From: a virus
Taxonomy: Duplodnaviria; Caudoviricetes
Strand: one strand, 5' to 3'
DNA: 30,496 nucleotides
Virus record (IMG/VR): IMGVR_UViG_3300032327_000300
Location: 1-30,496 of that record
Both the position numbers and the translations under genes were made by a program. The first letter of the stretch is position 1. Every line of letters starts with the position of its first letter. The notes below the pieces were generated by a model that was not told the origin of the DNA, made no database searches, and worked only from the letters and a program-made list of their open reading frames with translations. Shown here in pieces: positions 28,413 to 30,496 of the stretch.

Positions 28413-28608
28413 CTTTCAGATATTCCTTTTCTGCTTTTGCCATCGCAAGATAAAAACGGGCTTCTTTGATGTTTTGTTTCATGTAACGCTTGTATTTGGC
28501 GGTTTCCCGCTTTCCCATTCGATAATCATTCAACATTTGAATGTATCGTTGGTTTGTTTGGCGCATGCCTTTGGCGGCATCAACCAGCGCATTATAAAGA
28601 TTACTCAT
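28357..28608 (-). CDS. Small basic helical hypothetical protein (83 aa)
   Basis: Strong SD GGAGG before the ATG at 28608 (MSNLYNALV...). Confidence 0.65.
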   Translation of the reverse strand: MSNLYNALVDAAKGMRQTNQRYIQMLNDYRMGKRETAKYKRYMKQNIKEARFYLAMAKAEKEYLKDVKTLRSGNSGTDHQQPV

Positions 28609-28741
28609 GATTTTCCTCCGCGATCTTTTCAAGAATCCACGCGATAATGTTGATCGTGACGATGAACACAATCACGCCGCAGATTAATTCGAGGAAGAGT
28701 TCGCAGGCCTGTTGGCCTTCAGGTGTTAAAATCGGTGTCAT
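28601..28741 (-). CDS. Small single-TM membrane protein (46 aa; missing from ORF track)
   Basis: SD AAGGAG; MTPILTPEGQQACELFLELICGVIVFIVTINIIAWILEKIAEENHE; stop overlaps the next start. Confidence 0.7.
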   Translation of the reverse strand: MTPILTPEGQQACELFLELICGVIVFIVTINIIAWILEKIAEENHE

Positions 28742-28763
28742 GTGCGTTGTTCTCCTTGCCCAA

Positions 28764-28845
28764 TCTTTTTTGCACTAAACGAAAATGATGTCAACCATCC
28801 ACACCCCAAATTGACATTTTGATGGTTAACCCTCATTTACAAGAC
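28764..28845. promoter_or_regulatory. Back-to-back divergent promoters
   Basis: Minus-strand TTGACA at 28794-28789; plus-strand TTGACA at 28811-28816 with CATTTA 17 nt downstream. Inverted repeat AACCATC (28793-28799) / GATGGTT (28821-28827). Confidence 0.7.
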
Positions 28846-29067
28846 ATGCAAACACAACATCCATTGCGTCAGTGGCGCGTAAGACACAAGATATCGTTGG
28901 TTGAATTGGCTGGAAGGGTCTCTTCAACGGCGGCGACCCTGTCCAGAATTGAGCGGGCTTTGCATCTGCCAAGAAAAGGTCTGCTCAGGAACATACATTA
29001 TGTGACGGGCATCTCCGGCAAAAGGTTGATGCTGGCCTATTTGGATAAAACTGATGATCAGGCTTGA
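28846..29067 (+). CDS. XRE/Cro-like helix-turn-helix regulator (73 aa)
   Basis: HPLRQWRVRHKISLVELAGRVSSTAATLSRIER..HLP HTH pattern; first gene after the divergent promoter. Confidence 0.85.
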   Translation: MQTQHPLRQWRVRHKISLVELAGRVSSTAATLSRIERALHLPRKGLLRNIHYVTGISGKRLMLAYLDKTDDQA

Positions 29068-29434
29068 ATTGCCTTTTCCACCAAGCGCAAATGCCATCTG
29101 GCAGGGGAACCGCCAAGGCAAGGTGTTCAAGTCGCCCAAATACAAAGAGTGGCTGGACGAGGCTGGCTGGCTGGTTAAACAGCAAACCCGCAAGATCGTC
29201 CTTGGCCCGTATGTTTTGCAGGTGCAGGCCGTTCGACCCGACAAACGCCGCCGCGATCTGGACAACCTGCTGAAGGCATCGAGCGACCTGCTGACAAAAA
29301 TGAACATCGTCGAAGATGATTCGATGTGCAAAGCCATTGCCGCAGAGTGGGTTGAAGACGGCCCGCCCATCACCCTTATCGTTTACTCACTGGAGGATCA
29401 GACATGGAAAATCCCAAATCTTTGGCTGAACTGA
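29054..29434 (+). CDS. rusA: RusA Holliday junction resolvase
   Basis: LPFPPSAN..W and PDKRRRDLDNLLKASSDLL...EDDS catalytic motifs. Confidence 0.93.
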   Translation: MIRLELPFPPSANAIWQGNRQGKVFKSPKYKEWLDEAGWLVKQQTRKIVLGPYVLQVQAVRPDKRRRDLDNLLKASSDLLTKMNIVEDDSMCKAIAAEWVEDGPPITLIVYSLEDQTWKIPNLWLN

Positions 29435-29832
29435 AAGCTCACTATCTGGCGGTGAAGAAACGGCTGGGCGGTGTAGCTGGCGGGACAGGTGTGGTTGCAC
29501 CAGCGGTTGTCTTCCGCGAGCCTGAGCCAGACAAAGAGCCGGAGAAACCCGTTGATTCGTTCTTGTTCGATATCAACGTGCCGCGATACAAGTTTGTTCA
29601 GATGTTGCGGGATGTCGCGCACATGCATGGGGTTGATCCGCAGGTGGTGCTGTCTCCCTGCGCCAAGAAAGCCATTGTGCAAGTTCGGCACGAGGTTCAA
29701 TACAAGGCCCGCAATGATCTTGGTATGACCCTGACCCAAATCGGGCGCATCTTCAACCGTGACCACACAACCGTGTTGAACGCTGTGCGGAGCCATCAGA
29801 AAAAGATTGATGCACAGGCAAACCACGCATAG
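29404..29832 (+). CDS. Protein with DnaA C-terminal (domain IV)-like HTH
   Basis: VQVRHEVQYKARNDLGMTLTQIGRIFNRDHTTVLNAVR matches the DnaA domain IV RDHTTV signature; no AAA+ domain. Confidence 0.85.
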   Translation: MENPKSLAELKAHYLAVKKRLGGVAGGTGVVAPAVVFREPEPDKEPEKPVDSFLFDINVPRYKFVQMLRDVAHMHGVDPQVVLSPCAKKAIVQVRHEVQYKARNDLGMTLTQIGRIFNRDHTTVLNAVRSHQKKIDAQANHA

Positions 29833-29835
29833 AGT
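29807..29835 (+). promoter_or_regulatory. Predicted promoter of the suhB/alpha-r8-like sRNA
   Basis: TTGATG (29807-29812), 17 nt, TAGAGT (29830-29835); predicted +1 near 29842. Confidence 0.5.
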
Positions 29836-29840
29836 GATCT

Positions 29841-29903
29841 GGCTCTAGTCTCAGAGCGTTTCCTCCCAAAACTTGGCTGGGCCTTCGCGGTCCAGCTTTT
29901 TTT
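29841..29903 (+). ncRNA. suhB / alpha-r8 (MmgR/GsrN)-like small RNA
   Basis: 5' hairpin GCTCT/AGAGC, single-stranded GTTTCCTCCC-AAAACTTGG, then an intrinsic terminator. Matches my recollection of the alpha-r8 UUUCCUCCC core and architecture. Confidence 0.65.
29876..29903 (+). terminator. Rho-independent terminator
   Basis: Stem GCTGGGCC/GGTCCAGC with loop TTCGC, followed by T7. Confidence 0.88.
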
Positions 29904-29905
29904 GT

Positions 29906-29934
29906 TTGACGGGATGCCACCAACTGTGCATTTT
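29906..29934 (+). promoter_or_regulatory. Predicted promoter of the replication gene
   Basis: TTGACG (29906-29911), 17 nt, CATTTT (29929-29934), immediately after the terminator. Confidence 0.55.
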
Positions 29935-29974
29935 AAAAGAAGAAGGGCCATCCAGCGGCAAACCGGATGACCCT
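29935..29974 (-). terminator. Minus-strand intrinsic terminator
   Basis: 12-bp stem AGGGUCAUCCGG/CUGGAUGGCCCU, with two G-U pairs possible only on the minus strand, followed by UCUUCUUUU. Confidence 0.7.
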
Positions 29975-30010
29975 GATTTCGGAACAGATGCGGTGTTCCG
30001 GTTGGATAAC
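29935..30010 (-). ncRNA. Putative counter-transcribed antisense RNA (~75 nt) to the replication-gene leader
   Basis: Minus-strand promoter TTGATC (30045-30040)-N17-TATATT (30022-30017); internal hairpin 29980-30000; minus-strand terminator 29974-29935. Confidence 0.6.
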
Positions 30011-30065
30011 GGTATCAATATAAAACCGTTCGCCCATCGGATCAACCAGAAAAAGGATGATTCAG

Positions 30066-30496
30066 GTGGCCAGCGCGATCCCATATATCCCCTTCTATCC
30101 CAGCGATTATCTGACAGACACTCAGCACCTGACAACTCAGGAGCATGGCGCATATTTTTTGCTAATCCTCCATTATTGGCAACGTGGTTGCGCCCTTGAG
30201 GATAACGACAAGAAGCTGTCGAGCATCGTAAAAATGGACCAATTTGACTGGGCAGAAGTGCGCCTTTCGTTGGAAGAATTTTTTGAAATTGATGGCGGTT
30301 TGTGGCATCATAAACGCATTGATCTTGAATTGCGGCGCGTCAAGGCGCGGGCGACCAAAGCGTCAAATGCTGGAAAAGCGTCTGCTCGTAAACGCTTGAA
30401 TGGCAAAGAAAATTTAACAGTCGTTCAACGGTCGTTCAATCCAAGTTCAACTTGGGACCAACAACCGTTCAACCATACAGATACAGATACAGATAC
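30066..30496 (+). CDS. DUF1376/YdaU-family replication initiator (lambda O-like position), 3'-truncated; missing from ORF track
   Basis: SD AAGGA precedes GTG 30066: MASAIPYIPFYPSDYLTDTQHLTTQEHGAYFLLILHYWQRG...LWHHKRIDLEL...AGKASARKR...HTDTDTD. Frame is open to the window end. Confidence 0.88.
   Translation, partial: MASAIPYIPFYPSDYLTDTQHLTTQEHGAYFLLILHYWQRGCALEDNDKKLSSIVKMDQFDWAEVRLSLEEFFEIDGGLWHHKRIDLELRRVKARATKASNAGKASARKRLNGKENLTVVQRSFNPSSTWDQQPFNHTDTDTD
30412..30496 (+). repeat. Putative replication origin iterons (11-bp period) plus (ATACAG)n
   Basis: GTTCAA at 30423, 30434, 30445 and 30467; degenerate copies at 30412 and 30456. ATACAG x3 from 30475. Confidence 0.75.

Follow-up and report, generated by a model that had tools for sequence, protein, structure and literature searches.

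A conserved cassette in the leader of a likely replication initiator gene is most likely an antisense-controlled translational attenuator of the phage replication operon. It is described here for the window, i.e. the whole stretch of DNA that was analysed (30,496 nucleotides), a 30.5-kb virus record with podophage-type virion genes. In this cassette, an antisense RNA of ~75 nt would shut off translation of the initiator by switching the fold of the leader, as in plasmid pSK41; judged from the sequence, we assign this reading a probability of about two in three. The plasmid-style antisense control of the original prediction is well supported in silico, since the cassette is conserved, its wobble pairs are strand-specific and a fold with two states recurs among its members, whereas the two models that it had invoked, the OOP RNA of phage lambda and the repABC plasmids, do not fit.

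Genomic context of the cassette

The gene blocks of the window are a leftward one with ERF and SSB and a rightward one with an HTH gene, RusA, a gene with a DnaA C-terminal-type HTH domain and the DUF1376 gene, which is cut by the contig end (Table 1). In the divergent early region (28741-28819) a Cro-like HTH gene is found; the left arm is without a CI-type repressor. The host is probably alphaproteobacterial, as suggested by a suhB/mmgR RNA, by GcrA in a complete relative and by the helicase, whose best match among plasmids is on a Methylobacterium plasmid. The complete relative (G002) encodes, besides the GcrA homologue, a protein with an RNA polymerase alpha C-terminal domain (E 5e-17; L376:1013-1642, L375:8109-8648).

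Table 1. Positions of the cassette elements and their neighbours in the window
Feature	Position	Strand	Basis or remarks
Gene with DnaA C-terminal-type HTH domain, upstream of cassette	29404..29832	+	Pfam PF08299, E 7e-13; context only
suhB/mmgR (alpha-r8)-like small RNA	29835..29912	+	Rfam RF00519, 43.8 bits (gathering cut-off 41)
Predicted sense sigma70-type promoter of the replication operon	29906..29934	+	TTGACG 29906-29911, N17, CATTTT 29929-29934; conservation
Predicted antisense RNA, ~75 nt	29934..30010	-	Promoter, terminator and two-hairpin fold
P1, putative intrinsic terminator of antisense RNA	29934..29974	-	13 pairs (29974-29944), U-rich tail; G-U strand specificity
P2 hairpin, CGGAACA/TGTTCCG, variable loop of 6-7 nt	29980..30000		Folds on either strand
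P3, long stem of nascent mRNA, predicted ON state	29992..30047	+	Fold prediction; plus-strand G-U bias
Predicted antisense promoter	30017..30045	-	TTGATC 30045-30040, N17, TATATT 30022-30017
P4, anti-RBS paired with Shine-Dalgarno (SD) and start, predicted OFF state	30034..30069	+	Fold prediction
DUF1376/YdaU gene, likely replication initiator, cut by contig end	30066..30496	+	Pfam PF07120
Iteron-like repeats (three 14-nt copies, spacing 11 and 33) and GATACA-repeat tract	30416..30496	+	Within gene

The alpha-r8-like RNA noticed earlier beside the cassette is recovered by Rfam, and its terminator (29875-29904) would shield the replication promoter from transcription coming from upstream. The packing of two small RNA genes, to which significance had been attached, is incidental: the suhB/mmgR RNA lies outside the conserved cassette and occurs in 4 of the 20 member loci scanned, all within the window's own subgroup. 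A fixed link between the two was rejected on this count and because the suhB/mmgR core motif is found in ~240 viral stretches (L171-L290) in many contexts, usually followed by a terminator and often directly before apparent HNH or packaging genes. Phage-borne copies of this sRNA family look common.

Predicted facing promoters and antisense RNA

The promoters previously read from the sequence, TTGACG-N17-CATTTT on the sense and TTGATC-N17-TATATT on the opposite strand, are both present. Sense transcription is predicted to start at ~29941; a generic consensus scan did not list this promoter, and its support is its conservation. The -35 of the antisense promoter sits within the segment that can pair with the ribosome-binding site (anti-RBS). 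The predicted antisense RNA, whose 5' end would lie ~55 nt from the start codon, consists of a short 5' tail, a recognition hairpin (the complement of P2), the terminator hairpin and a U tail. In agreement with the ~75-nt RNA first proposed, the stretch 30011-29934 folds as two hairpins with z = -4.41, and none of 200 shuffles was equally stable. The claim that the terminator favours the minus strand also holds: the fold energy of P1 is -22.1 kcal/mol on this strand versus -13.3 kcal/mol on the plus strand. When 29900-30070 was shuffled 1000 times with dinucleotides kept, a unit of promoter and terminator spanning 50-120 nt, on either strand, appeared once.

Conservation of the cassette

Two distant loci from the DUF1376 searches share a hairpin and a downstream motif. 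A viral pattern built on those two motifs only gave 45 loci, 23 of which were judged members; a second viral pattern, with the -10 included and the P2 5' arm omitted, gave 23 loci with 17 members, none of them new and each containing P2, and a metagenome pattern without the -10 gave 20 loci with 18 members. Together with the window, 27 distinct cassettes are at hand, 47-91% identical to that of the window (median 55%); folding tests use 26 of them, since one ends before the RBS. Cassette features occur all together or none at all: among 16 other distinct pattern matches, the -10, the terminator, the sense promoter and P3 were each found in 0/16, and P4-like pairing in 4/16, a contrast that is partly circular because members and chance matches were sorted by eye using hairpins and the downstream ORF, i.e. 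some of the features compared.

The P2 stem formed part of both main search patterns, by which P2 and the base of P3, both almost without variation, were partly selected; the antisense -10, the sense promoter and the strand bias of P1 are features outside the first viral and the metagenome pattern. The antisense -10 is kept in all 27 members, as TAnnnT (six variants) 17 nt from TTGATC in 24 and as TATAAT at 16 nt in the remaining three. A sense promoter TTG...-N17-YAnnnT is found at the same offset, 72-76 nt before P2, in 26/27, the 27th having a 16-nt spacing. The sequence of P1 varies freely among members; nevertheless, its minus-strand form is the more stable one in 26/26 and has a U-rich tail behind it, with 51 G-U pairs on the minus versus 11 on the plus strand, and in 22/26 no arm from another group pairs as well as the cognate one. 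The predicted antisense RNAs of the 26 members measure 68-75 nt (z = -4.3 to -7.3); in these length figures, as in those on folds and RBS opening, the antisense start of L354, L363 and L366 is 2 nt off, a promoter spacing of 18 nt having been assumed where the actual one is 16.

That all these motifs are due to chance or are mere inherited sequence, with no antisense transcript, is hardly credible: the search itself did select some of them, but the unit was matched by 1/1000 shuffles, and both spacing and strand bias are kept at ~50% identity.

In P2, the G-U pairs are strand-symmetric (4 versus 4), which is the expectation if both RNAs need this hairpin; it is likely the first contact point for the antisense RNA. 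A YUNR U-turn is found in none of the sense loops and in one antisense loop among the 26 members. The P2 stem is invariant, whereas the loop is of 15 distinct types among the 26 members, a variability that may hint at exclusion as the main role: a resident antisense RNA would block the initiator of co-infecting or superinfecting relatives with a matching loop, and control of the phage's own copy number would be a side effect. Plasmid ctRNAs are described as incompatibility determinants in the available parts of PMC10194956 and PMC6090056, and the complete member genome is without a detected CI-type repressor. Drift, however, could explain the loop variation, and the loop GATGCGG is common to five members of different subgroups, so that exclusion as the main role appears improbable. 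It is compatible with the switch favoured here, since the same molecular device would be used.

Classical covariation is sparse. P2 never varies, the base of P3 and P4 vary one-sidedly apart from one cell, and P4 has no two-sided compensatory change; for P3a, the upper part of P3 (30008-30030), only 59% of cells are paired when a single register is imposed. For the whole ON structure, 15 two-sided changes are counted, a number reached by 3 of 500 shuffles. RNAalifold on a MAFFT alignment recovered P2 only.

The cassette is not a general feature of DUF1376 genes, its motif being found in only L011-L013 of 160 DUF1376 loci examined. A covariance model matched only L012 and L013 among 81 viral DUF1376 loci and only two loci, both known members, among 83 helicase-linked ones; it gave no match in three bacterial genomes, and the cassette pattern was absent from two samples of 401 genomes each, which is weak evidence. 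In Rfam scans of the window region and of 20 member loci suhB alone matched; ctRNA families were not found up to E 10 in 28500-30496, nor at the gathering score in the 20 member loci. With blastn, three leaders gave short chance matches only against phage and plasmid records.

Two predicted, mutually exclusive folds of the leader

The third leader stem of the original prediction is present in its AACGGT/ACCGTT part (30008-30013 paired with 30025-30030), which holds the antisense -10 in its loop, but the enclosing helix, P3, is longer than had been described; moreover, an exclusive fourth helix that buries the SD and the GTG, P4, had been missed. P4 is formed by 30034-30047 with 30055-30069 (SD 30053-30059, GTG start 30066-30068). 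The two helices compete for the conserved segment CATCGGATCAACC, which is complementary both to the upstream arm (P3) and to the SD and start codon (P4). The invariant segment TCGGATCAAC contains the antisense -35 and is the partner of the upstream TTCCGRT arm in P3 and of the SD/start in P4. The 5' arm of P3 is at the same time the second arm of P2, so that formation of P3 rules out P2 as well as P4. The part of the mRNA covered by the predicted antisense RNA, 29941-30010, includes this P3 5' arm, so that the antisense RNA would force P4.

Translation most likely starts at GTG 30066, since a 94% identical relative has its ATG at the aligned position. This makes ATG 30057 the weaker candidate; both codons lie within P4. 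Two other modes of control were rejected. A leader peptide is disfavoured because the ORF 29873-30199 is in frame in P0001 but not in the window, and because members carry differing indels. Terminator-type attenuation was discarded because P4 has no U-tract: among the nine bases after the start codon there are no U residues in the window and at most five in any member.

P3 has 47 G-U pairs on the plus versus 18 on the minus strand. Its plus-strand form is the more stable one in 24/26 members, and that of P4 in 19/26. In prefixes that end before the RBS, the probability of P3 exceeds 0.5 in 26/26 members (mean 0.94), and in this nascent fold P3 keeps the anti-RBS segment off the ribosome-binding site, whereas at full length P4 exceeds 0.5 in 25/26. 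The duplex of the anti-RBS with its own start region reaches z = -1.8 to -5.0 against 93 control starts; two member genomes supplied these controls, one of which is probably a cognate start. The own start beat the best control in only 6/26.

The leader folds were compared with and without antisense coverage, as suggested originally. When the covered part is masked, the mean cost of opening the RBS rises from 10.5 to 13.9 kcal/mol; the increase exceeds 1 kcal/mol in 21/26 (median 3.6, window 4.3) and is below 1 kcal/mol in 5/26. At equilibrium, however, the full-length leader is predicted to be OFF without the antisense RNA as well. The ON fold lies 6-14 kcal/mol above the OFF fold and the barrier is only 3-8 kcal/mol, so that ON can only be a kinetic state, with a short predicted lifetime. 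Translation would depend on ribosomes loading on the nascent RNA, given that the leader is OFF at equilibrium.

The two states could control the initiator in the following manner: P2 would form first in the nascent mRNA. If no antisense RNA is bound, P3 would hold the anti-RBS as the RBS emerges, opening a brief window for the ribosome. An antisense RNA that contacts the P2 loop and zips over 29941-30010 would block P3; P4 would then immediately hide the RBS and start codon, the initiator would not be made, and the helicase and primase encoded downstream would perhaps also be lost, by polarity. The outcome would be negative feedback on origin firing, because the level of antisense RNA would follow template number.

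A simpler scheme would dispense with the refolding: the antisense RNA would lower the initiator via duplex formation and RNase III cleavage or via promoter collision, with P4 as a constant damper of translation. The full-length leader being OFF with or without antisense RNA suits this scheme, as does the complete overlap, for ~70 nt, of the transcripts predicted from the facing promoters; RNase III cleavage is, moreover, the route proposed for OOP in the available part of PMC5869508. It leaves unexplained, however, the occurrence of P3 in 26/26 members, its plus-strand G-U bias and the exact pairing of the anti-RBS, and we consider it unlikely compared with translational switching by the antisense RNA.

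The presumed target gene, its operon and the likely origin

In the 94% identical relative, the DUF1376 protein comprises 154 aa and is followed by an SF2 helicase and a primase. The same order recurs elsewhere: in 16 loci the cassette is followed by a short ORF of 103-171 aa, an SF2-type helicase comes next in all 15 loci with enough downstream sequence, and a primase follows where the locus reaches that far, the helicase and primase families having been confirmed for some loci only. Ten short ORFs were tested and fall into three PHROG groups, DUF1376/primosomal, phrog_3926 initiation protein and phrog_26426 replication protein. Three pairs of cassettes that are 84-92% identical sit before different initiator-like groups, which indicates exchange of the gene, from its start codon on, behind a retained switch; P4 follows the RBS of whichever gene is present.

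An initiator role is likely, as suggested by the family labels and by a generic winged-helix fold. The DUF1376 domain of the window was modelled as a winged helix (pLDDT 85), and its structure matches, which include ORC2, Cdc6, a multidrug-resistance plasmid initiator and DnaD, are generic (best Z 6.5, none at 8 or above). Atlas matches for this domain are Lin1244_N and Phage_rep_org_N at 0.86-0.91; a PDB sequence search found nothing, and Foldseek gave no match at E 0.001. The short genes (window 30066-30496, L344, L336, L346, L354) consist of an N-terminal winged-helix domain and a repeat region, without the C-terminal domain of the PHROG profiles of 270-345 positions, and several of the short proteins have acidic-aromatic ends, e.g. 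EEDFL or EDESF. A module of RusA, short DUF1376, helicase and toprim genes is located on the Methylobacterium indicum plasmid pVL1_2 (L380:4642-8443; 128-kb circular record), where no cassette was found.

The repeat tract within the gene is the likely origin. Initiator-like genes of relatives have repeats with a period of 11-12 nt, and these are DNA elements, because in L346 they lie beyond the stop codon. Iteron-like repeats at a distance of ~350 nt could be taken to mean that the hairpins act as DNA or as primer, P3a being an operator or cruciform at the antisense -10 and a minus-strand RNA priming or opening replication. The centre of P3a does coincide with the antisense -10 box, OOP was initially taken for a primer (PMC12197685, available part), and RNA-based origins are known in phages (PMC7157519, available part). 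Nevertheless, the opposite-strand G-U bias of P1 and P3 indicates two RNAs rather than DNA palindromes, the antisense RNA has a strong terminator and is directed away from the repeats, the phages have their own primase, and P4 follows the RBS even where the gene is swapped; a DNA or primer function is thus quite improbable.

Related layouts exist in sister phages. In two of them (L383:1696-1860, L385:1890-2105; helicase 62-64% identical), a cassette of similar layout and unrelated sequence stands before a different short initiator-like gene; it consists of a minus-strand terminator-like hairpin, a small hairpin and a minus-strand promoter-like site in a long stem, and the covariance model gives it no score in either phage. 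A second recurring layout (L395, L402, L399, L392, L393) upstream of a short pre-helicase gene comprises an A-rich run with a GC-rich hairpin behind it, followed by a small hairpin with a GGAGG site; L395 and L402 have a short leader ORF there as well. In L395, a minus-strand TTGAAA/TATATT promoter and a terminator define ~84 nt. The sister phages L387 and L388 have no short initiator gene; AT-rich, repeat-rich non-coding DNA lies directly before their helicase.

Implications for phage lifestyle

Tyrosine integrase (PF00589) was found in none of four member records and PF00239 resolvase in neither of the two tested, the two largest (G001 and G002), of which G002 is the only member rated as a complete genome. 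Direct searches of G001 and G002 for ParA (AAA_31) and S24 peptidase domains found neither, and Pfam scans of all their 145 ORFs of at least 62 aa likewise detected no resolvase, no ParA and no S24 peptidase or repressor domain. Five sister records without the cassette are also without integrase. As no integrase, resolvase, ParA or S24 repressor domain was found, the gene content argues against ordinary lysogeny, and likewise against a plasmid prophage of low copy number. Compatible lifestyles are a lytic phage with a brake on its own initiator or, as the less favoured reading, a multicopy carrier state.

Antisense copy control is a hallmark of plasmids, and self-braking of an initiator is unexpected in lytic phages. 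A fixed switch with interchangeable initiators, where no integrase, partition system or CI was found, points to an unrecognised limit on intracellular phage replication, candidate roles of which are a carrier state, the timing of replication modes and the exclusion of kin. A far-reaching version, tentative and rather doubtful at present, would be that in this integrase-less and repressor-less podophage clade antisense copy control is the whole lysogeny system, with a multicopy carrier state, replication-immunity groups set by the P2 loop and initiators and origins swapped behind the fixed switch. Because the cassette comprises ~165 bp and has natural loop variants, the model can be tested by reporter fusions without culturing the phage.

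Comparison with known systems

A literature description of the cassette, or of such a device on a phage replication gene, was not found, most subscription papers lying outside the search. In IMG/VR, the unannotated candidate structured RNAs DNAVirus_4653, DNAVirus_230 and DNAVirus_187 are located at most 25 nt upstream of DUF1376 (Fremin et al. 2023, PMC10690425), and the leader may be one of these and thus catalogued without function; the entries, in the available part of this source, give no function, promoter or antisense RNA. DNAVirus_4653 (43 sequences, mostly freshwater, flagged palindromic) has 124 nt and the cassette leader 119-126 nt, a comparison made by description only.

Among phages, mycobacterial plasmid prophages are described as having RepA or RNA-based origins together with parABS (PMC7157519, available part). 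OOP, too, is a small antisense RNA of a phage; it has a promoter and a terminator to itself and lies directly before an initiator gene. Its target is cII, which it represses and whose 3' end it overlaps by 52 bases (PMC5869508, PMC12197685, available parts); in contrast, the cassette RNA would end at ~29934, the upstream ORF ends at 29832, and it covers only the untranslated leader of the downstream gene, so that control of the OOP type is not borne out.

The ctRNAs of repABC plasmids (RepE, IncA, p42d inc-alpha; ~50-59 nt) are encoded between repB and repC; in the accessible accounts (PMC3155836, PMC6090056), a large stem-loop frees the SD and start in their absence, and in their presence the leader refolds into a terminator upstream of the repC RBS (also PMC10194956). 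A counter-transcribed RNA in an initiator leader and refolding of that leader are thus shared, but the cassette has a promoter of its own for the leader, its off-helix hides the RBS and start and is without a U-tract in the window, and the repABC model put forward earlier fails on this difference. RepA, RepB or RepC were not found at E 0.001; the downstream gene belongs to DUF1376 or other phage families. In pT181 (RNAI) and pIP501 (RNAIII), a pre-emptor pairs with the 5' arm of an RBS-containing stem unless the antisense RNA is bound (PMC5703833, available part). The P3 5' arm would take this role in the cassette; the induced stem of these plasmids is a terminator, whereas no U-tract follows the start codon in the window.

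The closest parallel is pSK41, a staphylococcal RepA_N plasmid. Its RNAI, ~83 nt long with a 5' tail and two stem-loops, contacts the rep leader ahead of the RBS; the proposed effect is a stem-loop that sequesters the RBS, with no termination of transcription (PMC5703833, available part). The predicted logic is the same: a ctRNA gene lies over the untranslated leader, the RBS is not covered, and two exclusive leader folds are predicted in 26 members, the free fold being metastable. The cassette differs in belonging to a tailed phage of a probable alphaproteobacterial host, in the length of its RNA (68-75 nt), in its antisense -35 that doubles as anti-RBS and in its target, a short DUF1376-type gene before a helicase and a primase. 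Although it matches no Rfam family and no sequence relation to pSK41 was found, the cassette would, by analogy, work most like the pSK41 switch.
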